A program made the translations under genes and the position numbers. The notes below the pieces were generated by a model. That model did no database searches. It was not told the origin of the DNA and saw only the letters and a program-made list of their open reading frames with translations. A DNA stretch of 64,000 nt, taken from the IMG/VR virus record IMGVR_UViG_3300046477_000550; one strand, given 5' to 3'. Shown here piece after piece: positions 303 through 40,854 of the stretch (position 1 is its first letter; the number at the start of each line of letters is the position of its first letter). The DNA comes from a virus.

Positions 303-1466
303 TCAGTAAGCAGCGGCGGTGTAGTTCTTCAGCACGGCCTGCACCGAACCCGAGTCGGTGGCGTTGTAGATGCCGTTGATCGAGAAGTCGGCCGCCACAT
401 AGGTGCCACTGATGTCCGGCTTGCCCTTCGACCAGCCGCCCTGTGTCGTCGTCAGCGTCAGCGACGACCCGTTCGCATCGACACCGGCGCCGACCGGGGC
501 GGTGAGCGCCATCGTCGTCGGGTTGCCCTGCAGGGCCTGCAGGTAGAGGTTGTAGTCGACGTCGGACTCGTAGATCGCCTTGTAGGTGATGTCCGCGTCG
601 AGGACGCCGGAGAACACCTCACGCGGCTGCTGCGTGCCGTTACTCGCATGGATGGCCTCGATGGGCCGCTTCAGCGCCAGCTCGTAGGACAGGCCGCGCG
701 TCGAGGTGGCGCCCGCATTGGTCATGGCGAACTGCCAGCCCAGCAGCGGCGCAGGCTGCGAGAACGCGGGCGTGAACGGGCCCGCCTGGATGGCAGGGAT
801 CCACCCCATGTACTTGGCGCTGCAGGTGACGATGCCCTTCGGGTCCACCTTGAGGCTGACGTCGGAGAGCATGCAGCCGGTGTAGCCCCACGCCTCCAGC
901 ACGTTCGACTCGGTGATCGAGTACGTCGGCTTCGCGACGGTCGCCGACTGCTTGAACGTGTGCGTCGTCTGCGAGACGACCGCCACGGCCGAGGTGTGGG
1001 CATACGTCAGGCCGGTGGCGGGGGTGGCGATGGGGATCGTGTACGGGCCGGACCCGGTGGGGGTGCCGGTGGTGGCGTACTCGATCTTCGTACCGGTGTC
1101 GATCATGATGGTGGAGCCGAGAGGAATCGACGCCGCCACACTGATCGATGTGGCCCCGGCGATCGTCGAGGCGGACAGGGTCGTCGAGATGCCCGCCGAC
1201 ACGGTGTCCGGCCCGATGATCCGCAGGGCGTAGCCGAGCGCGTCCGGGTAGCCGTTGAACTCAAGGTCGACCGTCGAGTCCCCGGCGCCCTGGTAGAGGC
1301 CCTGCAGGTTGGAGTCGTTGCTGCGGTACGACGTGTCCTGCAACTGGTCGTAGTTGATCTCGGGGTCGATTTTCGTGCAGGCCAGGAAGTACGAGGGCGT
1401 CACCCACGTGCCCTGCACAGTCTCCTTCGCGAGGCCCACATATCCGAGCCGTCCCAGCAGCGTCAC
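303..1466 (-). CDS. major tail (tube) protein
   Basis: 387-aa beta-rich ORF with GTG start and GAAGGTGAG RBS. Last large gene in the capsid-neck-tail order. The call is positional, with no diagnostic motif. Confidence 0.6.
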   Translation of the reverse strand: MTLLGRLGYVGLAKETVQGTWVTPSYFLACTKIDPEINYDQLQDTSYRSNDSNLQGLYQGAGDSTVDLEFNGYPDALGYALRIIGPDTVSAGISTTLSASTIAGATSISVAASIPLGSTIMIDTGTKIEYATTGTPTGSGPYTIPIATPATGLTYAHTSAVAVVSQTTHTFKQSATVAKPTYSITESNVLEAWGYTGCMLSDVSLKVDPKGIVTCSAKYMGWIPAIQAGPFTPAFSQPAPLLGWQFAMTNAGATSTRGLSYELALKRPIEAIHASNGTQQPREVFSGVLDADITYKAIYESDVDYNLYLQALQGNPTTMALTAPVGAGVDANGSSLTLTTTQGGWSKGKPDISGTYVAADFSINGIYNATDSGSVQAVLKNYTAAAY

Positions 1467-1723
1467 CGCGACTCACCTTCGTCCTTCGTGTCGGTGTCCG
1501 CGGTGGTGGTGCGCTTCCTGGTGGGCTTCGGCGTCTCGTCGGCCTTCGCCTCGGCCTTCGGCGCCTCGACTGCCGTCCAGCCGTCGAGGAGCGCCGGGAA
1601 GGTGGCCTCGTCGCCCGGCAGGACGGCGTAGGCCGGGTGGCCTTCGGTCTCGGCGACGTTGTAGATGTAGGGGGTGGTGTTGCGCTGCCGCACCGGAGGC
1701 GGCGTCTCTTCGGACTCGGGCAC
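1463..1723 (-). CDS. hypothetical protein (neck/tail module)
   Basis: 86-aa ORF with a GTGA overlap onto the tail tube start. Confidence 0.5.
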   Translation of the reverse strand: MPESEETPPPVRQRNTTPYIYNVAETEGHPAYAVLPGDEATFPALLDGWTAVEAPKAEAKADETPKPTRKRTTTADTDTKDEGESR

Positions 1724-1798
1724 GGGGGCTCCTCGCGGACATCTGCGGGCATGAAAAAGGGCCCCCGCGAGGCGAGAGCCAGAAGGAAGGGCGCCGGG

Positions 1799-2290
1799 TC
1801 AGGACGTGTAGTCCTGGTCGTCCGCCTGGTAGGTGATCGAGCACGTCAGGTCGGCGTTCGCCTGGATGGTCTGTTCCGGGTCCGCGAAGACGACGTTGAT
1901 CGTCGTCGGATCCTCGGCGACGGACAGGAATCGCGCCCCGTGGGTCTTGTCCTGGAACAGGCCCGACACGCGCTGGATGACCAACTCAACGGCGACATCC
2001 AGGTCGGCCTGAACGGACTCGGCCTGCCCGGACGACGAGGTTTGCGGCCAGACGATCTGCAGCTCGAACCCGTAATGGTTGATCTTCCGGTTGAAGCCGA
2101 AACGCTCCGCTACGATCGATCGCCGCAGCACGTACAGGGACCGGCGCCGCTTGGCCGGAGTGCGCGGGCGACGCGCCTGCACCACATCGAACGGGCCGCC
2201 GTATGCCGCCAGCAGCCCAGGCAGACCGTCGGCAGCGTCGTAGGCGGCCAGCCATGCTGCCTCGCGGTCCACGGCATCCGCTGAACTCAC
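1799..2290 (-). CDS. neck / tail terminator-like protein
   Basis: 163-aa ORF between the capsid and tail tube genes. Assignment rests on size and position only. Confidence 0.45.
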   Translation of the reverse strand: MSSADAVDREAAWLAAYDAADGLPGLLAAYGGPFDVVQARRPRTPAKRRRSLYVLRRSIVAERFGFNRKINHYGFELQIVWPQTSSSGQAESVQADLDVAVELVIQRVSGLFQDKTHGARFLSVAEDPTTINVVFADPEQTIQANADLTCSITYQADDQDYTS

Positions 2291-2303
2291 CAGGCACCCC
2301 CGC

Positions 2304-2972
2304 TCACGTGCGCTGGTAGTTGCAAAGGATCTTTTCCGCCTGCGCGGCTAGCGCCCCCTGGTCGTGAGAGAACTGCGTCCCGGCCGGGTCGATCTCACCG
2401 AGCGCGAGGACGGCGGCCTGCAACTTGCCGGCCCGCCCCAGATCCGCCGGGACGGTGGTGTAGCCGCCGTCGTAAACGGTTCGGATCAGGGAGCCGAGCG
2501 GGAGGAACGTGCCGAGCGTGAACCAGATGTGCCCGGAGTCCGGCTCGGCGCCGATCAGCGACGCGGCATTCATGATCTGCGAGCCGCCGTATGACCGCAG
2601 AATGGTGACCTGCAGGCCGGAGTAGGTCCACATGTCCGGGTAGCGGCCGGCGAACTCGTTGAGCCACACGTGCCGGACCTGGTCGCCAGCACCGAGCGCA
2701 TTGGAGTACGACCTGCCGAGAGTCCCCTGAAGGTCCATGGGGAGGTTCGCGGCATCGGTGTACTCATCCGGGTCGATGCCCGTCGCCCTGTGAGTCTCCG
2801 GCAGGCCCGTGAAAGGCGCCAGGCGGCGTCCGCACATGCCCTCACACTGCCGGGTGGACTCGATCATCAACTGATCGAGGGCGTCCGCACTGTAGTCGCG
2901 GACCAGGTCGGCGAACTGCCCGGTCTGCATGTCCGCCGAGGTCGCAAGCGGGACCGGAGAGTCCGCGGCCAT
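2304..2972 (-). CDS. head-tail connector/adaptor-like protein
   Basis: 222-aa ORF in the neck gene position. Assignment is positional. Confidence 0.45.
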   Translation of the reverse strand: MAADSPVPLATSADMQTGQFADLVRDYSADALDQLMIESTRQCEGMCGRRLAPFTGLPETHRATGIDPDEYTDAANLPMDLQGTLGRSYSNALGAGDQVRHVWLNEFAGRYPDMWTYSGLQVTILRSYGGSQIMNAASLIGAEPDSGHIWFTLGTFLPLGSLIRTVYDGGYTTVPADLGRAGKLQAAVLALGEIDPAGTQFSHDQGALAAQAEKILCNYQRT

Positions 2973-2975
2973 CGG

Positions 2976-3329
2976 CTACTCCTCGACAGAGGCAGGCTTG
3001 CGGGCGGCCGTCTTCTTCGCCGCGGTCTTCTTCGCTGCAGGCTTCGCCTCGGGCTCGGCGGGCGGCGCGTCCGGGTCGATCTCAGAGATCTCCGGGTTCA
3101 TGTCCGGCTCGACCGGCGATTCCGGGTCGTCGTCGACCGGCGGTTCCGGGTCGGTGTCGTCGGGCGCCGAATCGTCCTCAGCGTCCGGCAGTACGAGGGT
3201 GAACCCGCCGTCGGGGATGGCGAGGAGTTCCTCAGCCTCCTCGTGCGGCATGTCGACGACTGCGCCGTCTTCGTCCCAGGCGTGACCGAACGAGTCGCTG
3301 CCCGCCCGGTCCTTGCGGATGAGCGGCAT
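2976..3329 (-). CDS. acidic hypothetical protein
   Basis: 117-aa ORF just downstream of the capsid gene. Asp/Glu/Pro-rich centre with a Lys/Ala-rich tail (AAKKTAAKKTAARK). Confidence 0.5.
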   Translation of the reverse strand: MPLIRKDRAGSDSFGHAWDEDGAVVDMPHEEAEELLAIPDGGFTLVLPDAEDDSAPDDTDPEPPVDDDPESPVEPDMNPEISEIDPDAPPAEPEAKPAAKKTAAKKTAARKPASVEE

Positions 3330-3393
3330 GAGCGCGCTCCTTTCGGCGTTGGGACGGTGGCGCGCAGCCGTGTGCCGCGCGCCACCGTGGGAG

Positions 3394-4770
3394 TCAGCTC
3401 GTCAGCGACGAGGAGACGCGGCTGATCCGGCCCGTGTACTTCGGCGCCCGCACCGCGAGCGCGCAGTCCGAGACGATCGCGTAGGGCATCTGGTCCGGGG
3501 CGGACGTCGTCGGATACACATCCAAGGGCTCCAGCTCTCGGACGTAGGGCCGCAGCAGGAACTGGGGGTCGCGGGCGATGAGGTAGATGTTCTCCGACCC
3601 CGCCGCCTGCGGCTTCATGGCCGCATTGGTGCCCACGTAGGCGGCCGGGATGTTGGCGGGAACGGTGGAGCCGTTCTTCGGGGTGAGCTTCGCGCCGTCG
3701 TCGAGGATCGACGTCGTGAGGATCGGCGTGACACCGTCCGCAGCGATACCGACGGTGGCGTCGACGTAGCCGAGGAACGTCTCCGCAGTCGTCGCCGTGG
3801 ACCGGAACACCTTGTACAGGTTCGGCTGCGCGCCGTCGTAGCCGCCCGGCGTCGAGAACGACAGGGTGACCGTCGACGTGGCGCCCGTGGTGGTCTGGGA
3901 GACCTCGACGGACGGCAGGATCTCGCCCTGGCGGGCGATGACCGGCGCGATCTGGTAGTAGTACGTGGCCGCGGCCAGAGTGCCGCCGGTGGTGGCGGTC
4001 GCCGTGGTGACCGCACCCATCTGGTAGGACCGCGCCGACAGGAACGAGCTGGTCACCATCGGGATACCCCGGTAGGCCTGCACGTTGAGACCCGCGGCGA
4101 CCTCGGTGGGGCTGAGGTAGCGCTGGTTGGCGATGGCGAGCTGCGCGATGCGCGACTCGGCGGTGGAGGACATGACGAACATCCAGCCCGGACCGTTGAT
4201 CTTCATGGCGGCCTGCTGCTCCACCATGTCGATGAGCTTGTCGAGCCAGCCCAGCGACAGCGAGGCGTTCGCGGCGTCGGCCGCGTTCTGGGTGCCGCCG
4301 GAGAACGTGGACACGAGGCTGTCGAGGCCGTCGAACTGCGGGTAGCCGCCCAGCGACGTGGACCCGGAGTTGCCCCACAGGACGGCGTTCTCGATGTCCC
4401 AGTACAGGCCCTGGATGGAGCCCTCGATCTCCTGCGCCCGCAGGTCCCCGGCAAGTCCGCGGGTGACGGCCTGCGCGTAGCCGGTGACGGCGCCGACGGA
4501 CTGCAGGTTGCGGATCGTGAACTGGTTCTGCACGTAGGTCGAGTTGGTGACCGGGCGGGCCCCGCCGTCGGACACGAAGCCGCCTGCCGCGCGGGCGGTG
4601 CGCTGGTTGAAGTAGTAGACGTTGGAGTCCCACTTGCGGGTGGGGATGGCCCGCACGAGGGGGGCGTAGCGCCGCTGGTACTCCAGCAGCATCGGGTCGA
4701 CGATGGTCGGGGTGAGGGCGGCTGCGCCTGCGGCGGTCAGCGCCTCGCGGAGTTCGGCCTGGCTGGGCAT
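3394..4770 (-). CDS. major capsid protein (HK97-fold type)
   Basis: ATG at 4770 with GGAAGG RBS, so the 4842 start of the ORF track is an upstream extension. 458 aa, directly after the protease-scaffold gene. Carries an Ig/FN3-like insertion (TYYYQIAPV...NLYKVFRS). Confidence 0.75.
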   Translation of the reverse strand: MPSQAELREALTAAGAAALTPTIVDPMLLEYQRRYAPLVRAIPTRKWDSNVYYFNQRTARAAGGFVSDGGARPVTNSTYVQNQFTIRNLQSVGAVTGYAQAVTRGLAGDLRAQEIEGSIQGLYWDIENAVLWGNSGSTSLGGYPQFDGLDSLVSTFSGGTQNAADAANASLSLGWLDKLIDMVEQQAAMKINGPGWMFVMSSTAESRIAQLAIANQRYLSPTEVAAGLNVQAYRGIPMVTSSFLSARSYQMGAVTTATATTGGTLAAATYYYQIAPVIARQGEILPSVEVSQTTTGATSTVTLSFSTPGGYDGAQPNLYKVFRSTATTAETFLGYVDATVGIAADGVTPILTTSILDDGAKLTPKNGSTVPANIPAAYVGTNAAMKPQAAGSENIYLIARDPQFLLRPYVRELEPLDVYPTTSAPDQMPYAIVSDCALAVRAPKYTGRISRVSSSLTS

Positions 4771-4897: not shown

Positions 4898-6715
4898 TCA
4901 GGCACGGTCTCCGAGAATGGCGCTCACGGTCGCCGGGGAGACGTGCGTGCGGAACTCCTCGTCGGTGTACTCGTGGAGCGGCTTCGCGGGCCAGCCCTCA
5001 GGGAGGCCCGCACCGGCGACCGGCGCAGTGTGCTCGGTGACCGGGGCGACGAGACCCTTGCGGGCCGGCCCGCCGGTCGCTTCGACGTGCTCCTGCACGG
5101 CCTTCGGCAGGGCGGCGGCGAGACCTTCGGAGACGAGGCGGCTGATGCGCTGCTCTTCGGTCTCGGCCACCTCCGCCGCAGCCGGGGCCGCGGCCTCGAC
5201 GACGGTGTCGGCCGCCGGAGCGGACTCGGTGGTGGGTGCCGGAACGGCGGCCGGGGTGACGGCGGCGAGGAGCTGCTTGAACTGGTCGTCGGTCAGGTGG
5301 ACCCCACCAGCGGCGGGGGCGGCGGCCGTGTCGGCTGCCGGGGTGGTGGACTCCGCCATGGCGGGCTCCTCTTCCTGGGTGGGGGTTTCGGCGACCGGTG
5401 AATCCGGCGCCGGAGTCTGGGTGCCGCCGTCGGCCAATCCAGCGGCAACAGCCGAACCGCTCTCGGCGAGTTGCACAGTCGGCGACTCAACGGCGGTCTC
5501 CATCGCGTCGTCGTCCTCGCCCATGCAGTGCACGCACTGGCCCTCGGCGCACTCGCACGGGCAGGCGCCAGGCGTCTCGGGGATCGCGCAGCCGCAGTCG
5601 CACGGGCACGGGGCGCCCGCGGCGGTCGCCGGTTCGTCGCCGTCCGGCGAACCCGGGGTGTCGACGTCGCCGTCCATGTCCGGGTCGATGTTCGCCAGGG
5701 TCTGGGCGGCACCGGCCATCGCAGCGCGGCCGACGGCGTCGAGGTCGTGGGGGTCGAGCGAGTACGAGGAGACGGTGACCGTGGTCGGCCCGTTCGTCAG
5801 CGACACGTACAGGTTTCCGGCATCACCGGAGTCCATGCCCCAGCACTCGGCGAGAGCCTCGGTCACCTGGATGGCGGGCTCGATCAGCCAGCCCTCTTGG
5901 GTGTCGACCGTGACGCCGAACTTCTTCAGGGCCTTGACGATGCGCTGCTTGATCCGCTTGAGCTGGGCGGAAGTGTAGTCGCGGGCGTTATCGGCCTGCC
6001 CGATGTACGCCCATGCGGCTTTCGCCTTGGCCTTACTGGAGATGTCGTAGCGCTGCTTCTTGTCGGACTGGTAGCCCGGGTCGGCGTAGGCGGTGCTGTC
6101 TCCGGATAGGCCTGAGCCGCGCTTCGACACGGCCGGAGTGTCGGCCTCGGTCGTGGTGGTCACCAGCGCCTCCTGTACTGACTCATGGATCAGCACCCGT
6201 CCGTCGGATGCCGTCTCCGCCGGGGCGCTGGCGGCCTCCGCGGGGGTGAATGTGTCGACCTGAGCGCCGGGCACGCCGGGCTTCCTCGTGAAATCAAGCC
6301 CATCGAGTTCCAAGTCGTCACTGGTCTCAACGGGCGAGCCGTCTGGTCCCGGCTCCCGCCGCACCTTTCCCACCCACGCCCCGCGGATCGACACTCCGCG
6401 CAGGAACGGCGGCCCGTCGGTGTCGTCGACGAGAGCGGCGATCGTCTGGCCCGCCACCGTATTCACCAGGTCCGCGGTGTACTTCGCCGATCCGTCCTCC
6501 GCGAGGGTGACCGACGTGAGTCGACCGGCGATCTGCGTGGAATCGTCGTCGGCTGCATGGTGGGTGAGCATCGCCAGGGGCATCGAGCCCTCGTCGATGC
6601 GCTCTCGGGCCCGCTGTACGGCCTTCGCGATGTTCTCGACGGTGTAGAGGCGCCGGTTGCGGCTGATGCCGGGTACGAGCGCGGTCCCGGAGATGGTGCC
6701 GATCCGGCGCCCCAT
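4898..6715 (-). CDS. capsid maturation protease (S78-like) fused to scaffolding domain
   Basis: The N-terminus shows the prohead-protease pattern (MLTHHAADD...IAGRL...LRGVSIRGAW). The centre has a YADPGYQSDKKQRYDI...AAWAY scaffold-type motif. The C-terminus is Ala/Pro/Glu-rich. ATG at 6715, with an alternative GTG at 6739 overlapping the upstream stop. Confidence 0.7.
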   Translation of the reverse strand: MGRRIGTISGTALVPGISRNRRLYTVENIAKAVQRARERIDEGSMPLAMLTHHAADDDSTQIAGRLTSVTLAEDGSAKYTADLVNTVAGQTIAALVDDTDGPPFLRGVSIRGAWVGKVRREPGPDGSPVETSDDLELDGLDFTRKPGVPGAQVDTFTPAEAASAPAETASDGRVLIHESVQEALVTTTTEADTPAVSKRGSGLSGDSTAYADPGYQSDKKQRYDISSKAKAKAAWAYIGQADNARDYTSAQLKRIKQRIVKALKKFGVTVDTQEGWLIEPAIQVTEALAECWGMDSGDAGNLYVSLTNGPTTVTVSSYSLDPHDLDAVGRAAMAGAAQTLANIDPDMDGDVDTPGSPDGDEPATAAGAPCPCDCGCAIPETPGACPCECAEGQCVHCMGEDDDAMETAVESPTVQLAESGSAVAAGLADGGTQTPAPDSPVAETPTQEEEPAMAESTTPAADTAAAPAAGGVHLTDDQFKQLLAAVTPAAVPAPTTESAPAADTVVEAAAPAAAEVAETEEQRISRLVSEGLAAALPKAVQEHVEATGGPARKGLVAPVTEHTAPVAGAGLPEGWPAKPLHEYTDEEFRTHVSPATVSAILGDRA

Positions 6716-6735
6716 GATGCGTGCGGCCACTGCGG

Positions 6736-7131
6736 TCACCTTCCGATCAGCGCGATGGATGCCTGCGGGTAGACCGGGTTGGTGCCGCCGAGGGTCCAGG
6801 TGACGCGGCCCAGGTTCGGGAGGACCATGGCCGCCGTGCTGGGCATGTGGAGTCCGGCGAACGCGGAGGCACGCCCGGCCGATGTGGTCATCTGTGTGAT
6901 CTTCGCGATGGCCGGATACCAGTTGCCGTCGGGGTCCTGCACGTCGAGTCCGACGTCGAGCGTGGGGGTCGTGCCGGTCGGCGTACCGACAACTGCGACG
7001 GCGAGCCACACATCGCTGATGTCGGTCAGGCTGATGACCGGGCCGTTCGTTGTGGCGGCGCCGGACAGGGTGGGCGGCGTGCCGGATGGGGTCAGGTTCC
7101 ACAAGACCCGGGCCGGGCGGTAGATGCTCAT
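6736..7131 (-). CDS. hypothetical protein (head module)
   Basis: 131-aa Thr/Gly/Pro-rich beta-type ORF between the MuF and protease genes. Confidence 0.55.
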   Translation of the reverse strand: MSIYRPARVLWNLTPSGTPPTLSGAATTNGPVISLTDISDVWLAVAVVGTPTGTTPTLDVGLDVQDPDGNWYPAIAKITQMTTSAGRASAFAGLHMPSTAAMVLPNLGRVTWTLGGTNPVYPQASIALIGR

Positions 7132-7144: not shown

Positions 7145-8611
7145 TCATGTGAACCAGGCGGCGAAGTGGCCGAGGTCGACGGATGCGGATACGAAGCACC
7201 GGCATCGCGGGTGCGCGGGCCACTCCGGCAGGTCGCCGGGCGCCCACGGATTTCCGGCTTCGTTGGCCTCGCAAGCCGGACAGACGCGGCCGTCGCCGAC
7301 TGACAGCCAGTCGCAGGTCAGTACGCCTTCGGACTGGTACAGGGCGAGCGCTCCCCCGGCGGCTGCGCTGGTGATGGCCCAGTCGGTGATGAAGCCGACG
7401 TCGTCGTCCGGATCGTCTTCGTCGGGGGTGAGAGCGTCTTCGGCGGCGTCGGTCATGGTGTCGCGGTCGTCGCCACGGTCGGCGCTCTGCTGAAGGATCC
7501 GGGCGAGCGAGGCTTCTGCTCGCCGGATGAGGCGGGTGAGCCATGTGTCCACGGCTGCGCCTGCGTCGTCGAGGCGTTGCACGTCCTGGTAGGCGTCGGC
7601 GAAGGCGGCGTTCCAGTCGAGGCCTGCGCGTCCTGCCTGCTCGGCGGCGACGGCCACAGCGTTGACCATGCCCTCGGCGTGGCCTGCATTGAGGGCGTCC
7701 CGGAGTGCGGCGCGGAGGGTGTGCCATGCGGGGAGGTTGGGGAGCGCGGCGAGCATGGCGGTTGCGGCCAGGGCTGCGGCGGTCTTCTGATCGTCGCTGT
7801 TGGCTTCGGTGAGTCCGACGCTGCGGCGGAAACTGTCGACGGTGGCGGTGATCGCGTCGCGGTCGACGAGTTGCCGCCAGGCGTCGGCGACGATCCGGGT
7901 GTGCTCGCGCAGTTTCTCCTCGCGGCGCCGGAAGAGGAGCGCCCACATCCCTTCGAGCTTGCCGAGGTCAACGGCGACTTCGAGGATGCGCGGATCGTCG
8001 GCATACTCGATCGCGGTCTGGACGGCGGCGGTGCTCGCGGCCTTCACTCGTTCCGTGAGCGGGCCTCCCGAGGCGGCCCACCCGGCAGCGAACGCCTCCC
8101 GCGCCGGGGCCGCGATGGGATGTTCCAGTGGGCTGTCGGTGCGGTCGGCGCCGTGGACTGCGGCCAGCGCGGCGAATTCCACCGGGGTAGCTTCGAGGCG
8201 GTCGAGAGGTGACGGCTCGTCGGCGGCGATGTAGGTCACGGTCATGTGGGCGCAATAGCCGTGGTCTCGCGGGATCTGGATGCCTCGTTCGGCGAGTGCG
8301 TCCAGGGTGTCGCGCCGCAGGTCTTCGAGGTCGGACGAGTCGATGAGAGCGACGATGACGTCCTTGTCACCGCCGGTGAAGCGAGCCAGTCCGGAGATCT
8401 GCGCCTTGACCGGCTTGCGGGCCGCCAGCTCTGCGACGACCTCGCGGAACTCGTCGCCATCAATGTCGTCCGCATCACCGAGGTAGACGACCGTGACGTG
8501 CATTTCGTCGGGCGGGAGGCCGCCTTCGACTGCCAGCTTCTCGGCGACTTCGGGCGGCGGATAGAGGGCGATCATGCAGCCGTCGGAGTAGTCCGGGGAT
8601 GTCACGGCCAC
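7145..8611 (-). CDS. 2H phosphoesterase (LigT-like) / MuF-like minor head protein fusion
   Basis: The N-terminal ~165 aa has two H-x-T-x motifs (HVTV at aa 38, HMTV at aa 122). The C-terminus ends in VCPACEAN...WPAHPRCRCF, as in the SPP1 gp7/Mu F family. The gene follows the portal gene. Confidence 0.75.
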   Translation of the reverse strand: MAVTSPDYSDGCMIALYPPPEVAEKLAVEGGLPPDEMHVTVVYLGDADDIDGDEFREVVAELAARKPVKAQISGLARFTGGDKDVIVALIDSSDLEDLRRDTLDALAERGIQIPRDHGYCAHMTVTYIAADEPSPLDRLEATPVEFAALAAVHGADRTDSPLEHPIAAPAREAFAAGWAASGGPLTERVKAASTAAVQTAIEYADDPRILEVAVDLGKLEGMWALLFRRREEKLREHTRIVADAWRQLVDRDAITATVDSFRRSVGLTEANSDDQKTAAALAATAMLAALPNLPAWHTLRAALRDALNAGHAEGMVNAVAVAAEQAGRAGLDWNAAFADAYQDVQRLDDAGAAVDTWLTRLIRRAEASLARILQQSADRGDDRDTMTDAAEDALTPDEDDPDDDVGFITDWAITSAAAGGALALYQSEGVLTCDWLSVGDGRVCPACEANEAGNPWAPGDLPEWPAHPRCRCFVSASVDLGHFAAWFT

Positions 8612-8620: not shown

Positions 8621-8710
8621 TCAGCCGACTCGCTTCTTGATGAGCGGGAGGACGTCCTTTGCCCGCAGCGGGTGCGGGGGTTCCGGTGGCGGTTCAGGCG
8701 GCGTGCTCAT
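8621..8710 (-). CDS. 29-aa ORF between portal and MuF genes
   Basis: ATG at 8710 preceded by GGGAGGTGG. Reads MSTPPEPPPEPPHPLRAKDVLPLIKKRVG. Overlaps the portal 3' end by 17 nt. Confidence 0.3.
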   Translation of the reverse strand: MSTPPEPPPEPPHPLRAKDVLPLIKKRVG

Positions 8711-10238
8711 CGACACCACCTCCCGGCAGTGATTCGAGCGCCTCACACAGGCGGCGCCGGTACAGGTCGCGGGCGGACTCGCGGGGTGGGTCGGCGCCCG
8801 GCGGCGGCTGACCTGCGGCCACCGCCTGCAACTGGGGCGGAACTGGGACCGGTTCCGGCTTCTGGACCGTTACCGGTTCGCCGTGTGCCGGGTCGGCCGG
8901 TTCCAAGGCGGTGCCACGCAGCTTGTTGGCGATGTTCGCCTTGCTCGCAGCGTCCATGTCCGCCCACTTGACCAGGTTTTCCCGGTCCACGAGCACGGCC
9001 TGGTCGCCACCGTCGACGGCAGGTTCGCCAATGTCGGCGCGGTAGCGGTCGAGCGTCCAGGAGCCGTTACGGAGCCGTGTGTCGCGGATCTTCTCGACGG
9101 TCTCACTGTCGCGCATGTCGACATCACGGAACTTCAGCTTCCAGCCCTCGACGCCGAACCCGTTCTTCGCCAGGTGGAAGTTGAGGGCTTCCAGGACCAG
9201 TTCGGCGAGCGGCTGGCAGGTGTTGAGCATGAAGGTGCGGTCCTGCGCCTCACCCGTTCCGCCACCCAAGTTGCCGCTTTCGATGATGCCGACCTTCGAC
9301 GGGGGCACACCGTAGGAGGCGATGATCTCGTCGCGCTTCTGGTTGAGGAACGCCAGGTAGTCCATGGTGCGGGACTGCGACAGCTCATCGACTGTCGCGC
9401 CGCCCTTGGTGTTGATCGGGTTGCCGATGTTGCGGGGTCCGATGTTGCGCTGTTGATACTGCGCGTTCCACCGGTTGATGTCCCCCGGCGAGGCCCCGGC
9501 CGGGTGGTCCACGTGCAGGACCGGCGGGCAGCCCTTCCGGAAGATCTCCTTCGACGTAGCAGCCGAGAAAAGCCACGACACGATCGGCAGCATCGCGGCC
9601 TGCGTCGGGCTGACACCGAACACCCCGGAGCGCGGCGAATCCAGCGAGATGTGGATGACGTCGCGCGGCTCGAACGTGGCCCGCTGGCCCAGCTCGGTCA
9701 CCTGCACATAGCTGGTGATCGTGCCGTGCTCGTCGGCGATCGGCAGCATCGACGGGCAGTCCAGCGAATACAGGGCCACCGGCTGCTTACCGACCCACAC
9801 CACCTCAATGAACGCGTCACCGAAGACGAGGAGGTCGGTGATGACGCCGCGGAGGATCTGCCGGATGTTCTCCCGCGGATTGCAGTAGCCGATCATCCGC
9901 TCCAGCAGCAGCACCTGCTGCGGCTTGTCCGGCTGCTCGTCGTCGCCTTCACCGTCATCGGTATCCCAGTCGGTGACGAGACCGCCCGCGGTGATGGTGC
10001 GGGAGATGGCGTTGACGGACGCCCACGACCAGGGGCAGGCGAGATAGGCCTCGTAGAGCTGGTTGAGCGTCGAGCGGCGGTCGGACTGGGTGGCCGCGCC
10101 GATGCCCTGGTTGGATTCGGTGAGGCCGCCGGGGCTGATGCCGTACTCGTAGCCCGCACGTTCCGGAAGCTTCGCCGGGGCGGTCTCCAGTACTTCGTCG
10201 CTGGAGCGCAGGCCGTTCCACCAGGTGCGCAGACTCAT
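8694..10238 (-). CDS. portal protein
   Basis: 514 aa with an ATGA overlap onto the terminase stop. Size and position are typical of a portal. Central conserved-looking core (FGDAFIEVVW, SPRSGVFGVSP). Confidence 0.85.
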   Translation of the reverse strand: MSLRTWWNGLRSSDEVLETAPAKLPERAGYEYGISPGGLTESNQGIGAATQSDRRSTLNQLYEAYLACPWSWASVNAISRTITAGGLVTDWDTDDGEGDDEQPDKPQQVLLLERMIGYCNPRENIRQILRGVITDLLVFGDAFIEVVWVGKQPVALYSLDCPSMLPIADEHGTITSYVQVTELGQRATFEPRDVIHISLDSPRSGVFGVSPTQAAMLPIVSWLFSAATSKEIFRKGCPPVLHVDHPAGASPGDINRWNAQYQQRNIGPRNIGNPINTKGGATVDELSQSRTMDYLAFLNQKRDEIIASYGVPPSKVGIIESGNLGGGTGEAQDRTFMLNTCQPLAELVLEALNFHLAKNGFGVEGWKLKFRDVDMRDSETVEKIRDTRLRNGSWTLDRYRADIGEPAVDGGDQAVLVDRENLVKWADMDAASKANIANKLRGTALEPADPAHGEPVTVQKPEPVPVPPQLQAVAAGQPPPGADPPRESARDLYRRRLCEALESLPGGGVDEHAA

Positions 10239-11563
10239 GGGGCTTCCACCGTCCCCCCGGCGCGCGGCGCGTCATCGTCGTCGAACCACCAGGCGTCATC
10301 GTTCGGTGCGGTCTCCGCGGGGCGGACGGCCATCGTCGGGCCAAGCGGCTGCAGCACCTCGCCGATGGGCGCGGTCGGAACGTCGTCGAGGATGACGAAT
10401 TCCGGGCCGGTGCCGAGGTTGGACAAGAGATAGCGAACAGCGTCGCTCGCATGATCATCTGCTGTGGTGTCGGCGTCCTCGGGGTCGCCCTTGGTGGCGT
10501 GCGGCAGGTTCGACAGCTCCCGGTACAGCTCGGTGACCGTCGAGAACATGTGCAGCTTCGGGCAGGTCGTCCAGCCGTGAGCCCGGTGGTGCGCACAGGC
10601 GGGCGCCTCGCCGAGGTAGGAGTGGACTCGCTGCCAGCCGTTGACGCGGCTCCCGGCGCCCTTGCCGGCCGGGGAGAGGTGTACGCCGTTGTCGGCGTAC
10701 ACCGAGGAGATCGGTTTGGCGTCGCCGCGGGTGGCCCACATGGCGTCGTCGGCGTACCGCACGGCGACATGTTCGCCGTCGGCTTCCGCTGCGAGGATCT
10801 GCTTGGCCTGCTCGTTTTCGCCGATGCCCCGCTGGTATATCTCCCGGTAGACCCAGACACGGCCGTCTTCGTCAACGGCTGCCCACAGGACAGCCCAGGG
10901 GGCGCTGAAGCCCCAGTCGATGCCGTTGTACCGCCGCCACGAGGCGGGCAGTGCGATCGGCTCGATGACGTGCCGGTCGCGCTTCAGCTCGGGGAACATC
11001 ATTCCGGCGAACACGTCCCAGTCACCGTCCAGGAAGGCGGAGCGGAGTTTGCCGTCGAGGGCTTGGAGGTCTTGGGCGTACTCGGGGTTGACGTGCGGGT
11101 TGTCGGACAGCTTGGACGGGATGAAGCGCACGGTGCGGTTGCGGATGTCGGTGACGACGTTCGCCCCGTAGTTCGTGGGCTCGATATAGCGGGCCTTGAC
11201 CGCGCCGTGGCCGGGGCCTCCCGGGTTGGTTCCGGAGCGGATCCCGAGGACGGGGATGTCGCGGCGGCCGGAGCGGAGGCGGGACTCCAGGAAGGAGCAC
11301 ACGTCGGGCGGGGTCAGGGTCCGCTCGTCGAAGATGAGCAGCTGGTACTGGCCGCCCTGACGCCGGGTGGCGTCCTGGACAGTCTCGGCATACCGGAACA
11401 TGATCAGGCTGCCGTTCGGGAACCGCAGCTCGTACTCGGTACCGTTCCAGCGAGCCCCAAGATCCTTCGCGAAGTTGAGGTTGACCAACTCGGCGATGAG
11501 CGACTCTTTCAGCTCGCCGTAGGTGCGGCGGAAGGCGCCGACGCGCAGCCCCGGGTACTGCAT
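10235..11563 (-). CDS. terL: terminase large subunit, main part (frame-disrupted gene, part 2)
   Basis: Walker B-like YQLLIFDE. Nuclease-domain motifs GIDWGFSAPW and DDHASDAVRY. The same frame continues upstream as GKSRALTAHAIREC, up to the break at about 11600. Confidence 0.85.
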   Translation of the reverse strand: MQYPGLRVGAFRRTYGELKESLIAELVNLNFAKDLGARWNGTEYELRFPNGSLIMFRYAETVQDATRRQGGQYQLLIFDERTLTPPDVCSFLESRLRSGRRDIPVLGIRSGTNPGGPGHGAVKARYIEPTNYGANVVTDIRNRTVRFIPSKLSDNPHVNPEYAQDLQALDGKLRSAFLDGDWDVFAGMMFPELKRDRHVIEPIALPASWRRYNGIDWGFSAPWAVLWAAVDEDGRVWVYREIYQRGIGENEQAKQILAAEADGEHVAVRYADDAMWATRGDAKPISSVYADNGVHLSPAGKGAGSRVNGWQRVHSYLGEAPACAHHRAHGWTTCPKLHMFSTVTELYRELSNLPHATKGDPEDADTTADDHASDAVRYLLSNLGTGPEFVILDDVPTAPIGEVLQPLGPTMAVRPAETAPNDDAWWFDDDDAPRAGGTVEAP

Positions 11564-11586
11564 ACACTCCCGGATCGCGTGCGCGG

Positions 11587-11757
11587 TCAGCGCCCTACTT
11601 TTCCCCCACCAGCCGCCCCACCGAACAGCACATCGAACTCGGTCGCGGCGTGGAACTCGTGCTGCTTCGGTGTCGGTATGTAGCCGAGCTGCCCGAATAC
11701 GTCCTTCGGCTCGAAGGCCTGGGCTGCGAACTCAGCCCATTCGAGGGTGGCGGACAT
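11587..11757 (-). CDS. terL: terminase large subunit, N-terminal fragment with Walker A (part 1)
   Basis: ATG at 11757 with AAGGAGG RBS. Reads MSATLEW...PKQHEFHAATEFDVLFGGAAGGGK, then stops 3 codons after the frame break. Confidence 0.7.
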   Translation of the reverse strand: MSATLEWAEFAAQAFEPKDVFGQLGYIPTPKQHEFHAATEFDVLFGGAAGGGKVGR

Positions 11758-11773
11758 CCGCAGCCTCCTTGCT

Positions 11774-12445
11774 TCAGGCCGAGGCGAGCGCCCGCAGATG
11801 CCTGGGGACAATCTCGGGAACGCGGGCTTGCTGCTCCGTTGTCAGCTGGAGGTCGCCGAGGATCGCTCGGATGGCCTGCGCGATCAGGGCGCCCTGCGAC
11901 TCCGCCAGCCGGATCCGCCGCTCTTCGATGCCGGCCTTGATGGCTTGGGAGCACACCGTGACGAGGTGCGAGCGTTCCTGCTGGTAGAGCTTCAGCCACA
12001 CGTTGGGGACGGCTTCCGAGGTGGTTCCGTAGTCCTCCCCGCCCGACTTCTCCTTGGTGATGCCCCAGACGAGGGGATGCCCAGTGTCCGTTCCGGCAAC
12101 GACTGTGGCGGATTCGATCTCTTGCACGCGTTCGCGGAGCCATGCGACATGGCCGGCGGTCCACTGCACTTCGTCCAGCAAGGCTTCGCTGGCCGTGGTT
12201 TCGATCTTGCGGCCGTAGGTTTCCACGAGCACCCGGGCCTTCTCCTCGGTGAGCCGTTCCTCGGCCTTGGCGAGGTTCTGAGGCGCCATTCCGCCATGGT
12301 TTTTACACACGTTCTGGCCGCGCATCGCGATCTGCCCGCACTGGTCGCCAGTGTTTTTGCGTCCCCAGCAGCGGCGTTGCCCGCTGGGGCGGAGTTCTTC
12401 GAAGCCTTCCGGTAGCTGGCGGCCCCACCCTCTGTCGGTGGCCAT
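11774..12445 (-). CDS. terminase small subunit-like DNA-binding protein
   Basis: ATG at 12445 (TGATG overlap). Zinc-ribbon-like RCWGRKNTGDQCGQIAMRGQNVCKNHGG. Lies immediately upstream of terL. Confidence 0.5.
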   Translation of the reverse strand: MATDRGWGRQLPEGFEELRPSGQRRCWGRKNTGDQCGQIAMRGQNVCKNHGGMAPQNLAKAEERLTEEKARVLVETYGRKIETTASEALLDEVQWTAGHVAWLRERVQEIESATVVAGTDTGHPLVWGITKEKSGGEDYGTTSEAVPNVWLKLYQQERSHLVTVCSQAIKAGIEERRIRLAESQGALIAQAIRAILGDLQLTTEQQARVPEIVPRHLRALASA

Positions 12446-13247: not shown

Positions 13248-14498
13248 TCAGTTGTCGGCGTCCCAGCGGGTCCCCGTCAGCTGTGGTTGCCACCGGCCGG
13301 GCCGATCCGAGGCGGCCCAGCCCGGGCCGATGAGTTCGGCCTGCCACCGGGCGGGCCCGTCCTCGGCATCCCACCGGAGGTGAGGGCCGGTGACGTGGAA
13401 CAGCGGGGCGGCCTGCCCCCCGGCCTGCCCCCCGGTCGGTACGGCGCCGGTGAATGCCCCGCCGCGGATGGGCAGCAGGCGCCGCCGATGCGACCGGACA
13501 AACGGCACGGGCCACGCCGCCGCCTGTGCCTGCTGAAGCACGGGGGCGGCTATCCGGCCCCGTCGTGCCGCCGCCACGCGGGTTGCCCGCCGCGACAGCC
13601 ACGCGGGCACCCATGCGGGTGCGGTAGGCGCTACGCCGGCGGGCGCGATCCTGGTGAACATGCCGCGGCGTGCCGGGGCCACGCGTCGTGCAGGCTGCCT
13701 GTACGGGGCCTGTACGGGCGGTACGGGACCGGTCGGAGCGGGTGTGGGGGTGAAGTAGTCGCTGCGTCGCCCGCACAGGGGGCGTGGGCGACGCGCGGAC
13801 AGGTATCCGGGCGGCGCGGGCTGCTGTGCGGGAGCGGCTGCGGGCTGGGGCGTCCAGGTGAACCGGCCGCGGCGAAGGAACGCCAGCCGGATGCGCGGGC
13901 GGACCGGCTGCGGTGCGGCAGCCGGGGCAGTGCCGGCGGGCGGCACGGGTAGAAAGATGCCGCGGCGCCCACCTGTGGAACGCAGACGGCTCCGGGAGAC
14001 CGTACCGGGCGCCCAGGCCGGGGTGGCGGGTGCTGCTACTTGGGGCGGGGTCCAGGTGAACTCGCCCCGGCGTGCGAACAGGGCCCGCAGGCGCGGGCGC
14101 GACATCTGCGGCACCGTCGACGGCTGGGTGGGCGCTGCTGTCGGGGGTGTCCAGGTGTAGTGGCCCCGCTGGGCGGGGAGTGAGCGGCGGCGCGCGGAGG
14201 GCGCCCGGACTGGCGGTGCCGGGGTGAGCCATGGCGGGTCGAAGTAGTCCCGGCGCCGGACTTGGACCAGCCGGACCGTTACGCGCCGGATGAAGCCGGG
14301 GACGGCGGCCGGCGCAGCCGGGGCGGACGGCGGGGGCGGTGCGGTGAAGGAGCGGCCTCGCCGGAGCCACAGAGCCCGGGGGCGCCGCCCCTCGACGAAA
14401 GCCGGAGCCCAGGGCGGCACCTGGGCCGTCTGCTGGGCTGGAGGAACGTATTGGAATCTGCCGCGGCGGACATAAGGGCCGCGCCACCGCCGCGACAT
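13248..14498 (-). CDS. Arg/Pro-rich tandem-repeat protein
   Basis: ATG at 14498 with GAGGAG 10 nt upstream. 416 aa containing about ten units of ~32 aa (R-rich...RRG-x-F-x-W-T-P-P...AP-rich). Other frames of this region are also open, so the frame is chosen on the RBS and operon context. Confidence 0.55.
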   Translation of the reverse strand: MSRRWRGPYVRRGRFQYVPPAQQTAQVPPWAPAFVEGRRPRALWLRRGRSFTAPPPPSAPAAPAAVPGFIRRVTVRLVQVRRRDYFDPPWLTPAPPVRAPSARRRSLPAQRGHYTWTPPTAAPTQPSTVPQMSRPRLRALFARRGEFTWTPPQVAAPATPAWAPGTVSRSRLRSTGGRRGIFLPVPPAGTAPAAAPQPVRPRIRLAFLRRGRFTWTPQPAAAPAQQPAPPGYLSARRPRPLCGRRSDYFTPTPAPTGPVPPVQAPYRQPARRVAPARRGMFTRIAPAGVAPTAPAWVPAWLSRRATRVAAARRGRIAAPVLQQAQAAAWPVPFVRSHRRRLLPIRGGAFTGAVPTGGQAGGQAAPLFHVTGPHLRWDAEDGPARWQAELIGPGWAASDRPGRWQPQLTGTRWDADN

Positions 14499-14505: not shown

Positions 14506-14973
14506 CTACTCCTCGTACTCGACGGCCAGGACCAGGGAGTGGTTCGCGGGCAGCGCGGTGACCCGGTTGACGAAGACGAGCGGGTTGGCGGTGCCGACGT
14601 CGGAGAGGAACTCCTCCATCAGTTCCCACGGCAGGTCGACGCCGCTCTGGGAGTTGAACGCGACCCGGAAGGCGTCCGCGGCGGCGAGCGTGGGGGCGAC
14701 GGACCAGACCGTGTCCAGGCCGGTGATGCCGGACGCCCCGGAGCGGGGATCGAGCCGCTGCCCGGTGACGGTAGTGCTGGCGGTGCCGCGTGCGGTGCCG
14801 CGGTTGATGGCCACCACGACTTGCTGCGAGGTGATCGAGCCGGACGCGACGGCGATACCGAGGGTGACTCGCCGCAGCTTGCAGGCGACGGCCGCGGCGG
14901 GCACGAGTGCGGCGAAGGCCGTGTCGACGGCGAGCGCCGCCGCGGACGTCACCTGCGCGTTGTAGCGGGCCAT
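14506..14973 (-). CDS. hypothetical beta-rich protein
   Basis: ATG at 14973 with GAAGGGA RBS. 155 aa reading MARYNAQVTSAAAL...LVLAVEYEE. Confidence 0.55.
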   Translation of the reverse strand: MARYNAQVTSAAALAVDTAFAALVPAAAVACKLRRVTLGIAVASGSITSQQVVVAINRGTARGTASTTVTGQRLDPRSGASGITGLDTVWSVAPTLAAADAFRVAFNSQSGVDLPWELMEEFLSDVGTANPLVFVNRVTALPANHSLVLAVEYEE

Positions 14974-14984
14974 TGCGGTCCCTT

Positions 14985-15554
14985 CTAGAAGTAGCTGCCG
15001 TATTGGCTGAGCGTGCTGGGGGTTTTGGTGGCGCTGCCGGCGGACACGTCCGCGCCGGTGAAGTCGTCGAACTTCAACAGGGGCGACGATTCGGCGCGGA
15101 GGCCGGTGCTGGTTCCGGTCGTAACAGCCGTGTTGGTGACGGTGACGCGGGCGACGTTGTTGACGTAGCCGGTGATCGTCGAGCCGACGGCCTGGACCTT
15201 GGCGATGTCGCCTGCGACGGCCGCCCCGGCGAAGGAGCCGATGCTGGTGAAGCTGCCGCCGACGTTCGAGAAGAGCACCCACGAGGTGCCGTCATTTCTC
15301 CACAAGTAGCCCTGCGTGAAGCCGGTGTTGCCGCGACACCACACGCCGTGGGAGACGGCGCCGGTGGCGGCGATCGTGGTCTGTGCCGAGTTGTCGTTGG
15401 TGGCCATCGCGGTGGCGGCACGGATGACGATCGTGCCGCCTGCGCTGCCCGGGGAGAGCTGATTGGAGACGATCGTCCAGAGGCCGGTCCCGTCAACCCA
15501 GCCCGCTCCGGGTGCGCCGTTGGCCCGGTTGAAGTCGTCGGTGAAGGTGGTCAC
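14985..15554 (-). CDS. LamG/concanavalin-like domain protein
   Basis: GTG at 15554 with GAGGAGG RBS. The FTDDFNRANGAPGAGW...W start and the beta-sandwich pattern are typical of LamG-like jelly-roll proteins. Confidence 0.55.
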   Translation of the reverse strand: MTTFTDDFNRANGAPGAGWVDGTGLWTIVSNQLSPGSAGGTIVIRAATAMATNDNSAQTTIAATGAVSHGVWCRGNTGFTQGYLWRNDGTSWVLFSNVGGSFTSIGSFAGAAVAGDIAKVQAVGSTITGYVNNVARVTVTNTAVTTGTSTGLRAESSPLLKFDDFTGADVSAGSATKTPSTLSQYGSYF

Positions 15555-15923: not shown

Positions 15924-15938
15924 GGTCACCGCCCGTCG

Positions 15939-16010
15939 TTGGCCCGGCAGGACTTGAACCTGCAACTCGCGGCTGGGGGCCGCTGCTCTGCCGTTTGAGC
16001 TATCGGGCCA
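15939..16010 (-). tRNA. tRNA-like sequence with aberrant anticodon arm (possible pseudo-tRNA, Gly-CCC if a 4-bp stem is allowed)
   Basis: Same acceptor stem as the Ile tRNA (UGGCCCG/CGGGCCA). Good D arm (GCUC/GAGC) and T arm (GCAGG-UUCAAGU-CCUGC). However, there is an extra A after the acceptor stem, and the GCGGC/GCCGC stem encloses only CCCCA. Confidence 0.4.
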
Positions 16011-16150: not shown

Positions 16151-16151
16151 G

Positions 16152-16225
16152 TTGGCCCGCCAGGTCTCGAACCTGGCGCCTCCGCCTTATCAGGACGGCG
16201 CTCTAACCAGATGAGCTACGGGCCA
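16152..16225 (-). tRNA. tRNA-Ile (anticodon GAU)
   Basis: Full cloverleaf drawn by hand. Acceptor UGGCCCG/CGGGCCA, D arm GCUC-AUCUGGUUA-GAGC, anticodon arm CCGUC-CUGAUAA-GGCGG, T arm CCAGG-UUCGAGA-CCUGG, discriminator A. CCA is not encoded. Confidence 0.85.
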
Positions 16226-39071: not shown

Positions 39072-39153
39072 AGTCGGGGCCTCGTTCGTTTTCGACAGTA
39101 GAGGACTTCTTGCGTCTTGACAAGTGACCGGCATCGAAGGGAAGAATGTACCC

Positions 39154-39456
39154 ATGAACACCGATGACGAGAGAGGAGGGATGCCCGACCTTGTCACCTT
39201 CACGGAGATCGCCAAGCGGCTCACCGAGCGCGGCATCATCGAAGGGTCGATCACCCGACAGGGCGTCCGCCACATCGCAGACACCGACCCGGACTGGCCC
39301 GTCCCGCCCGAGCACTGGATCAAAGCGGGGCGCGCCTTCCTGATGCACTGGGATCCCGTGGAGAAGTTCTTCCGTGAACGCGAAATGCCTCGCAGAAGAG
39401 GGCCCGGCAAGAAGGCCGAGTCGGCCGGCGCTGAATCCGAAAAGCCCGAGCAGTAA
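39154..39456 (+). CDS. Xis/MerR-like HTH DNA-binding protein
   Basis: LVTFTEIAKRLTERGIIEGSITRQGVRHI...DWPVPPEHW matches the HTH_17 pattern. ATG at 39154 is preferred (GGGAAGAA upstream). The ORF is open from GTG at 39124. Confidence 0.6.
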   Translation: MNTDDERGGMPDLVTFTEIAKRLTERGIIEGSITRQGVRHIADTDPDWPVPPEHWIKAGRAFLMHWDPVEKFFREREMPRRRGPGKKAESAGAESEKPEQ

Positions 39457-39588
39457 TTCCTCATGTATCCAGAGCACACCCGCACCGGATACCGCCTCTA
39501 GGGATTGCCTGTCGCCAACGCGGCGTCGAGCCAAGTGGCGACAGGCGGGCCCCTATTCCGACCCATCGATAGTCGGGAGACTCAAGGC

Positions 39589-40794: not shown

Positions 40795-40802
40795 CACGCA
40801 GA

Positions 40803-40854
40803 CGGCCGGGGTGTCGAGACCCCGGCCGTCGAAACCAGCGGTGTCTAGACCGCT
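40803..40854 (+). terminator. two tandem stem-loops after the XRE gene
   Basis: CGGCCGGGGT-GTCGAG-ACCCCGGCCG, then AGCGGT-GTCTAG-ACCGCT. Confidence 0.5.

Follow-up and report, generated by a model that had tools for sequence, protein, structure and literature searches.

We analysed a 64,000-nucleotide stretch of viral DNA (IMG/VR record IMGVR_UViG_3300046477_000550), referred to here as the window, which is identical over 18.6 kb to the Joint Genome Institute (JGI) metagenome contig Ga0495592_0000130 (66.6 kb). The subject of the analysis is a minus-strand gene whose product joins an N-terminal 2H phosphoesterase domain to a C-terminal region resembling the minor head proteins of the MuF/SPP1 gp7 type. 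An earlier note on this gene, made from the sequence alone, had proposed that the phage delivers the enzyme together with its DNA. The gene and its parts, in window coordinates, are as follows.

7145..8611, minus strand: 2H-MuF fusion gene; maximal open reading frame (ORF) of 488 codons from GTG 8611, stop codon at 7145-7147
8123..8581, minus strand: 2H phosphoesterase domain (residues ~11-163); PF13563, AlphaFold predicted local distance difference test (pLDDT) score 93, Foldseek matches in the PDB all 2H
8489..8500, minus strand: first catalytic motif, H38-V-T40-V; H and T invariant in 39 sequences and in 75 distant representatives
8237..8248, minus strand: second catalytic motif, H122-M-T124-V; H122 invariant, third position T or S
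7148..8119, minus strand: MuF/SPP1-gp7-like minor head protein region (residues 165-488, 324 residues); mostly helical, with a small C-terminal beta element
7190..7501, minus strand: MuF core according to curated models (residues 371-474; TIGR01641 alignment)
7196..7282, minus strand: Cys/His motif, C444-x2-C447 ... H467-x2-C470-x-C472; columns invariant in 21 and in 35 sequences

The 2H domain was recognized by the Pfam model PF13563 with 44.5 bits (E = 2.2e-11; gathering cut-off 27), far more than chance would give, and the same model matched all 18 2H-bearing members of a 21-sequence family. The two H-x-T-x motifs that the earlier note had placed at residues 38 and 122, 84 residues apart, are present and both are conserved. 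When the 21 sequences were aligned (alignment A1), both histidines were invariant and the third motif position was T or S in 18 of the 18 2H-bearing members; the same conservation was observed in 39 sequences and in 75 distant representatives of differing architectures. Because these residues are kept in every architecture and over the whole identity range from 100% to about 35%, the active site appears to be maintained. In the AlphaFold model of residues 1-170 (pLDDT 93), both motifs lie at the starts of strands. A Foldseek search of the PDB with this model, which the note had suggested as a check, gave 48 matches at E <= 1e-3, and all 48 are 2H enzymes, with template modelling (TM) scores of 0.55-0.65 (lower for Acb1). 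The top matches were the CPDase/LigT proteins 5h7e, 1iuh and 5ldm (TM ~0.6, E down to 6e-8); matches of this type include the Deinococcus CPDase, Thermus thermophilus TT0787 and Escherichia coli LigT (TM ~0.6). Further 2H matches were the 2',5'-phosphodiesterases rotavirus VP3 and mouse hepatitis virus (MHV) ns2, Usb1, AKAP18 and phage Acb1 (TM 0.45-0.53; 7t27). The match of highest sequence identity (24%) was the phosphodiesterase PDE-9 of Burkholderia phage BCSR5 (9q2g), a phage enzyme that degrades cyclic GMP-AMP (cGAMP). The 2H/LigT assignment of the N-terminus is thus borne out, and, as judged from sequence conservation, the first ~165 residues form a 2H phosphodiesterase whose catalytic site is intact.

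Within the superfamily, sequence comparison places the domain in a distinct phage clade, since its similarity to solved proteins is only marginal: a sequence search of the PDB gave E = 0.01-0.03 for LigT-like proteins (PH0099 and TT0787 being the best) and 0.085 for 9q2g. By the curated cut-offs it is neither a ThpR/LigT equivalog nor Acb1. Its best NCBIfam match was TIGR02258 'RNA 2',3'-cyclic phosphodiesterase', with 36.8 bits over residues 32-135 and an equivalog cut-off of 65.7; the Pfam models LigT_PEase and 2H-SAK matched more weakly than PF13563, and the PHROG 'RNA ligase' families 2659, 14859 and 755 also match the domain. The Acb1 model PF23474 was matched weakly by 16 of the 21 relatives, 18 of which carry 2H (best E = 3.3e-5), and a more distant portal-2H protein, P0146, reached 31.1 bits with this model, over the cut-off of 27. 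ThpR/LigT gives the best overall structural superposition (TM ~0.6) along with the best NCBIfam match, but identity is 15-19%, and these are cellular stand-alone enzymes acting on RNA ends. Acb1 (the anti-CBASS nuclease of phages T4 and FBB1, CBASS being the antiphage signalling system based on cyclic oligonucleotides) and PDE-9 share the 2H fold and the two HxT motifs with the window protein; they are, however, small stand-alone proteins of ~150-165 residues, whereas the window 2H domain is tethered to a head protein. The short lid over the active site is C-terminal in Acb1 and N-terminal in PDE-9. Ahead of strand 1, the window protein has ~10 N-terminal residues (TSPDYSDGC) that are conserved in the close family and modelled at lower confidence (pLDDT 72), and by analogy with PDE-9 this free N-terminus might act as an active-site lid.

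The C-terminal region is MuF-like by predicted fold, synteny and transitive homology, the curated cut-offs having been missed. PF04233 matches 6 of the 21 relatives (best E = 3.6e-4), and phrog_2662, a portal-MuF fusion family, matches through its MuF part (profile positions 440-711). A hidden Markov model (HMM) of the family matches residues 1154-1266 of P0142 (3e-20), where Pfam calls Phage_Mu_F at 1159-1263 with 49.6 bits; the HMM coordinates also coincide with above-threshold MuF domains in BayC gp11 and Chidiebere gp23. The model of residues 165-488 has a pLDDT of 92.5. Among the viral structures in BFVD it has 44 neighbours at E <= 1e-3 (best 4e-5, probability 1.00, 270-320 columns aligned), and every neighbour that has a name is a head morphogenesis protein, a minor capsid (MuF) protein or a MuF-effector fusion (MuF-ART of Xp12, MuF-zeta toxin). 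The TM scores of these neighbours reach only 0.35-0.47, which is not surprising in a helical protein that is long and flexible. An hhalign comparison of the family profile with SPP1 gp7 as a single sequence yielded no match (probability 0.2), which is uninformative for one sequence set against a low-diversity profile. The region resembles SPP1 gp7 and Mu gpF in its MuF fold class, in a core that contains Cys/His, and in its post-portal position. The assignment to the SPP1 gp7/Mu F family made in the earlier note therefore stands on fold, synteny and transitive profile links, but not on the Pfam and NCBIfam cut-offs.

The C-terminal VCPAC...HPRCRC pattern on which that assignment had been based was found as V443-C-P-A-C447 ... 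H467-P-R-C470-R-C472 and is invariant. In the 21-sequence alignment, the invariant positions of the MuF region are D440, V443, C444, C447, P455, P462, P465, H467, C470, R471 and C472. The Cys/His motif probably forms a metal-binding knuckle. Inteins usually home into functionally critical sites. Three 2H-MuF relatives of 820-885 residues (P0131, P0158 and P0161) carry an intein (Hint/Intein_splicing) in the C-terminal part of the MuF region, adjoining the Cys/His motif and accounting for their greater length, and in P0131 and the similar, unscanned P0136, an insertion of ~380 residues lies directly before the C-x2-C ... H-x2-C-x-C motif. Because of this homing tendency, the position of the intein hints that the motif may be essential.

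The ORF at 7145-8611 exists as described in the earlier note, with 488 codons from a GTG, but its start is more likely at the in-frame GTG 8605, giving a product of 486 residues. A G-rich Shine-Dalgarno run lies directly against GTG 8611 and 5 nucleotides upstream of GTG 8605. Translation from 8605 yields M-T-S-P-D-Y-S-D-G, and homologues begin M-A-S-P-D-Y-S-D-G; the Shine-Dalgarno spacing and this N-terminal match are the reasons for preferring 8605. The JGI gene call at M13 would drop the conserved N-terminal segment. The gene directly follows the portal gene, as the note had stated, at a distance of 82-88 nucleotides. Its neighbours in the head module are listed below.

8694..10238, minus strand: portal protein gene, immediately upstream of the 2H-MuF gene; PF04860 100.7 bits, phrog_12 E = 2.7e-48
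6736..7131, minus strand: conserved 131-aa gene, immediately downstream of the 2H-MuF gene; 97.7% identical in contig L007, 78.5% in contig L006
4898..6715, minus strand: prohead protease/scaffold-like gene; phrog_207 head maturation protease plus DUF6582, 605 residues according to the JGI call in the identical contig L009
3394..4842, minus strand: major capsid protein gene; phrog_752 E = 1.2e-48, PF17236 SU10_MCP
10235..11811, minus strand: large terminase gene; phrog_2, split over two frames (11587-11811 and 10235-11563)

On the minus strand, the module thus reads large terminase, portal, 2H-MuF, 131-aa gene, protease/scaffold-like gene, major capsid and tail genes. The succession of portal, MuF gene, and protease/scaffold plus capsid genes is the same in L006, L007 and L009. 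An effector domain is joined to a virion-associated domain in a gene between those for portal and protease, the arrangement that defines polyvalent or early-effector proteins.

Contig L006 is a relative in which the portal is 80% and the downstream gene 78.5% identical; its MuF gene encodes 323 residues, with neither a 2H domain nor space for one. Because such a relative has MuF without 2H, the domain is, on sequence comparison, an accessory add-on to the head module. Contig L004 carries a portal gene, a genuine stand-alone 2H gene (208 residues), a ClpP-type protease gene and a capsid gene, and has no MuF gene.

Full-length 2H-MuF homologues are numerous. More than 200 were found (41-100% identity), mostly in Streptomyces genomes; as they lie on contigs of up to 863 kb, they are presumably prophages. 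In the sources they are labelled '2'-5' RNA ligase family protein', and one is labelled SPP1 gp7 family. Within the family, the 2H domain is 43-85% identical (39-sequence comparison). When the 2H domain alone was used as query, a word-index protein search gave 10 proteins; far more useful was an exhaustive search of representatives, which, at 50% identity, gave 3,527 clusters at E <= 1e-3, of which 1,670 remained at E <= 1e-10. Across the clusters, the 2H domain is N-terminal, internal or C-terminal, in proteins of up to 3,693 residues. An N-terminal 2H followed by this MuF accounts for about 35 of the best 150 clusters, some of them of greater length (the intein carriers P0131, P0158 and P0161). 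The earlier note had called an N-terminal cargo the opposite of the usual MuF-then-toxin order; this holds in comparison with MuF polymorphic toxins, but the arrangement is common in the 2H clade.

In 75 other representatives, the partners of 2H recognized by Pfam were mostly head-interior proteins. They comprise Peptidase_S78_2 (XkdF-type) in 6, S78 in 3, Portal_Mu in 4, Phage_portal (HK97-type) in 3, Mu-like_Pro and DUF2213 in 1 each, and DUF6582; a zeta toxin was found in 3. Portal-2H-MuF triple fusions and portal-2H fusions are also present among the relatives. Two longer relatives are worth recording: P0153 begins as 2H-MuF and extends to 3,693 residues, a giant polyvalent protein, and P0180 (738 residues) has a weak PI3/PI4-kinase-like match after the MuF region (25.2 bits, below cut-off). 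The view that all '2H-only' proteins of ~200 residues are genuine was rejected, since truncation or a frameshift of a fusion gave rise to P0121-P0123 and P0125; the genuine ones are P0124 and P0126-P0130.

Homologues of the 2H domain occur in 358 deposited actinophage genomes, where they lie in the head module (Mycobacterium 206, Gordonia 110, Streptomyces 17, Arthrobacter 16). They are labelled 'RNA ligase' or are hidden within genes annotated 'capsid maturation protease', 'portal' or 'MuF-like fusion'. Gordonia phage Chidiebere encodes 2H in a gene of its own, flanked by a portal-MuF fusion and a VIP2 ADP-ribosyltransferase. For the MuF half, no close relative was found among isolated phages; tblastn gave only a 44-residue match to the motif in Methanobacterium phage psiM2. 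A megablast search with 9 kb of the window against deposited phages gave no match.

Two cultured phages carry instructive relatives. Arthrobacter phage Kharcho gp87 is 35% identical to the window 2H over residues 11-135, a range that covers both motifs (E = 5e-21), and is the only member of this clade for which we found biochemical data. Like the window protein, it has an N-terminal 2H joined to a protein of the head interior, and its gene comes shortly behind those for the portal and MuF: at L010 4815-5954 (neighbours 1337-4652), it lies two genes after the portal gene and adjoins the MuF gene gp85. It differs in its carrier, an XkdF-type prohead protease (PF14550, 48.9 bits), with MuF being separate (gp85). 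GenBank labels gp87 'RNA ligase'. In the preprint by Doherty et al. (bioRxiv 10.1101/2025.08.21.671373), 16 phage 2H enzymes were purified, and Supplementary Table 1 lists gp87 as '2H PDE 16'; according to Table 2, gp87 has a protease-fold domain besides its 2H domain, and the latter alone was expressed. In vitro, PDE-16 yields 3'3'-cGAMP products with a GpA>p intermediate, as stated in the legends of Supplementary Figs 6C and 7C. The preprint makes no mention of virions, portals or MuF, nor does it note the head-module context of PDE-16. The second relative is gp11 of Streptomyces phage BayC/TP1604 ('capsid maturation protease and MuF-like fusion protein'), which is encoded directly after the portal and combines MuF (PF04233, 43.5 bits) with a homologous 2H (34.5% identity; family HMM 67 bits). 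Here the order differs, with MuF (residues 120-246) followed by 2H (residues ~273-440) and ~750 further residues, and the MuF part is not closely related to that of the window.

The proposal made in the earlier note, an enzyme against nucleotide second messengers that enters with the DNA, restates a published prediction and is not new as an interpretation. In PMC5512222 (Iyer, Burroughs, Anand, de Souza and Aravind, 2017), 2H-MuF and 2H-portal fusions are described and proposed to be RNases or degraders of defence-system nucleotides. Such fusions were later taken to suggest head packaging and injection, countering SMODS, cyclic-mononucleotide and CRISPR (clustered regularly interspaced short palindromic repeats) signalling (PMC9503650; Iyer et al., 2022). 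The window protein shares with those polyvalent or early-effector proteins the two domains in one polypeptide, the head-gene context and the packaged-and-injected logic. It differs in having a MuF subfamily without a close relative in isolated phages and an N-terminal 2H, and the work of Iyer et al. is purely computational; the architecture as such is not new.

The gene would belong to an uncultivated Streptomyces-type siphophage or prophage. SPP1 gp7 enters the procapsid via the portal, is present in a few copies inside the head and exits with the DNA. On this analogy and on the account of MuF in PMC5512222, we propose a packaging route in which the MuF-type C-terminal ~320 residues would act as carrier, entering the procapsid through the portal, residing in a few copies in the head and leaving with the DNA. 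The N-terminal 2H would ride on this carrier, so that the cell would contain the enzyme as soon as infection begins; the enzyme would be present again once the late head genes are expressed. Most likely it would hydrolyse cyclic or 2'-5'-linked oligonucleotide messengers (CBASS-type 3'3'-cGAMP) before effectors are activated, and the cyclic oligoadenylates (cOA) of type III CRISPR systems may be further substrates. Members of the same 2H clade have been joined separately to three head-interior proteins (MuF, portal and prohead protease), which argues for physical targeting rather than mere co-expression. That a nucleotide-messenger or RNA-end enzyme is packaged in the head is plausible and the most reasonable reading of the locus, packaging, ejection and substrate being the steps that we infer. 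The full proposal, a head-packaged 2H-MuF protein that is delivered with the DNA and destroys nucleotide immune messengers, we hold tentatively, with slightly less than even confidence.

Several results weigh against this proposal. On the side of the carrier, PF04233 did not match the window protein at E <= 0.1; TIGR01641 (phageSPP1_gp7), though it covers profile positions 3-105 of 109, reached 19.5 bits and fell short of its cut-off of 39.65; and a Foldseek search of the PDB with the MuF region gave no match (best E = 0.75), no MuF structure being deposited there. On the side of the enzyme, the Acb1 model PF23474 gave 21.3 bits, below its cut-off of 27, and the 2H domain is about equally far from LigT/CPDase-type RNA-end enzymes and from Acb1-type enzymes. 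In the literature, we found no virion proteomics and no direct evidence of packaging or ejection for this protein or its 2H-MuF relatives. The extent and specificity of PDE-16 activity are given only in the figures of 10.1101/2025.08.21.671373, from which the legends were used; according to this preprint, substrate range follows the 2H structural group, and some of the groups cleave none of 18 messengers. Because substrate range varies between groups, 35% identity to PDE-16 leaves the substrate of the window protein unfixed, and the step from one to the other is suggestive only. RNA ligase, RtcB, polynucleotide kinase and KptA were not found in the ~66 window genes scanned, which favours the proposal; the window is part of a genome, however, and an RNA ligase could lie outside it.

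This last result bears on an RNA-directed role, in which 2H would heal 2',3'-cyclic phosphate ends in the manner of LigT/ThpR or would attack host RNA as an RNase of the Usb1 type; the ends would come from host anticodon nucleases or toxin RNases, and the enzyme would be delivered or expressed late. The domain's best matches by structure are CPDase/LigT proteins from bacteria and archaea (5h7e, 1iuh, 5ldm), TIGR02258 is the top NCBIfam match, PH0099 and TT0787 are the best PDB matches by sequence, the phage has two tRNA genes, and a Usb1-like RNase is one of the two options given for MuF- and portal-fused 2H in PMC5512222. The TIGR02258 score is, however, far under the equivalog cut-off, the partners expected for RNA repair are those missing from the genes scanned, and the same-clade relative Kharcho gp87 cleaves 3'3'-cGAMP. 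[quoted passage not shown] We regard an RNA-directed role as unlikely, if still a serious contender. Another explanation needs no delivery: 2H may clear alarm nucleotides late, in the cytoplasm of the producing cell, for instance those triggered by assembly proteins, with the MuF fusion securing co-expression and stoichiometry and packaging being incidental or absent. CBASS escape reportedly maps to virion assembly proteins, to go by the title of a preprint (10.1101/2023.05.21.541620). The stand-alone 2H of L004, which fills the post-portal slot where there is no MuF gene, and the separate 2H gene next to the portal-MuF fusion of Chidiebere agree with such a role, but the covalent fusions of 2H to MuF, portal and prohead protease favour physical targeting. 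A late role alone seems quite unlikely to us; it and delivery are not mutually exclusive.

Two further explanations were rejected. MuF proteins are known to carry toxin domains (PMC12226406 and PMC5512222), and the occurrence of most homologues in Streptomyces genomes, on contigs of up to 863 kb, implies prophages; the protein could accordingly be a prophage-borne interbacterial toxin with 2H as its toxic module. The MuF polymorphic toxins described in the abstract of PMC12226406 have an N-terminal MuF and a variable C-terminal toxin, along with an immunity gene, and the window protein has its domains the other way round. Since the downstream 131-aa gene is kept in L006, whose MuF has no 2H, it is not a 2H-specific immunity gene, and without one the polymorphic-toxin explanation is removed; in addition, 2H is conserved across the family rather than polymorphic. 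We therefore consider a toxin very improbable. Scarcely credible is a non-enzymatic role, in which the 2H fold would have been co-opted for assembly or docking without catalysis: two phage 2H structural groups are inactive on all 18 messengers tested (10.1101/2025.08.21.671373), but the catalytic His and Thr/Ser are invariant in every homologue examined, from 100% to ~35% identity and in all architectures.

Returning to the head-packaged messenger-degrading enzyme, a broader form of it joins the published prediction of the Aravind laboratory to the published activity of PDE-16. In actinophages, the capsid interior may serve as a general delivery compartment for anti-signalling 2H enzymes, carried interchangeably on MuF, portal or prohead protease; on entering together with the DNA, the enzyme would destroy messengers of the CBASS or type III CRISPR type before phage genes are expressed. 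We regard this generalization as doubtful. If true, it would provide the first virion-delivered, pre-emptive nucleotide-signal eraser: were the fusions packaged and active, phages would bring a ready-made anti-CBASS or anti-cOA enzyme into the cell, and signalling defences would have no time window in which to fire ahead of the early phage genes. A virion-carried nucleotide-signal eraser has been predicted since 2017 and never demonstrated. What this locus adds is a large, well-conserved Streptomyces prophage family of 2H-MuF proteins and the link that PDE-16, whose degradation of cGAMP has been validated biochemically, is itself a fusion protein of the head module. The labels "2'-5' RNA ligase family protein" and "RNA ligase" conceal the MuF half and the likely function. 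For experiments, the cultured relatives in Kharcho and BayC are better entry points than a metagenomic contig.

Several features of the wider element were also recorded. Its GC (guanine plus cytosine) content is ~69%, and nearly all genes lie on one strand; other genes include DnaB, several helix-turn-helix (HTH) regulators, a DNA methylase fragment, many ORFans and the two tRNAs. The reading frame of the large terminase (TerL) breaks in Walker A (11563-11811, minus strand; shift site ~11590-11600), where frame A gives ...FGGAAGGGK-VGR-stop. Shifting by -1 on the heptamer G_GGA_AAA brings back ...GGGKSRALTAHAIRECMQYPG..., exactly as in the intact 507-residue TerL of L007, an 89%-related contig that reads GGC-GGC-GGC-AAG-TCC at this site. 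The split stems from an error of one base in a homopolymer, from a genuine mutation that inactivates the gene, or else from a programmed -1 frameshift; the same split in L009 is not independent evidence because L009 is the same element. Downstream of the 2H-MuF gene, a 734-codon ORF (4898-7102, minus strand) is over-extended, its first ~128 codons being Arg-rich, out-of-frame and overlapping the 131-aa gene (6736-7131). The protease/scaffold-like protein itself consists of the phrog_207 region, DUF6582 and a long acidic Ala/Pro-rich tail with a Cys-rich patch.

Upstream of the terminase, a 189-residue protein and a 416-residue ORFan are encoded on the minus strand at 14506-15554 and 13248-14498; the former weakly matches the 'virion structural protein' family phrog_2804 (E = 7e-6), and this is an unusual place for structural genes. 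The genes for tRNA-Gly(CCC) (15938-16010) and tRNA-Ile(GAT) (16151-16225), both on the minus strand, have the packaging genes on one side and the early region on the other. The window showed no integrase. A plus-strand island at 39124-41877, in an otherwise minus-strand genome, encodes a 429-residue HTH_31 (XRE-type) protein and is possibly an immunity or lysogeny switch. At 59540-59740 (minus strand), an N6/N4 DNA methylase fragment of ~66 residues is probably part of a larger gene.

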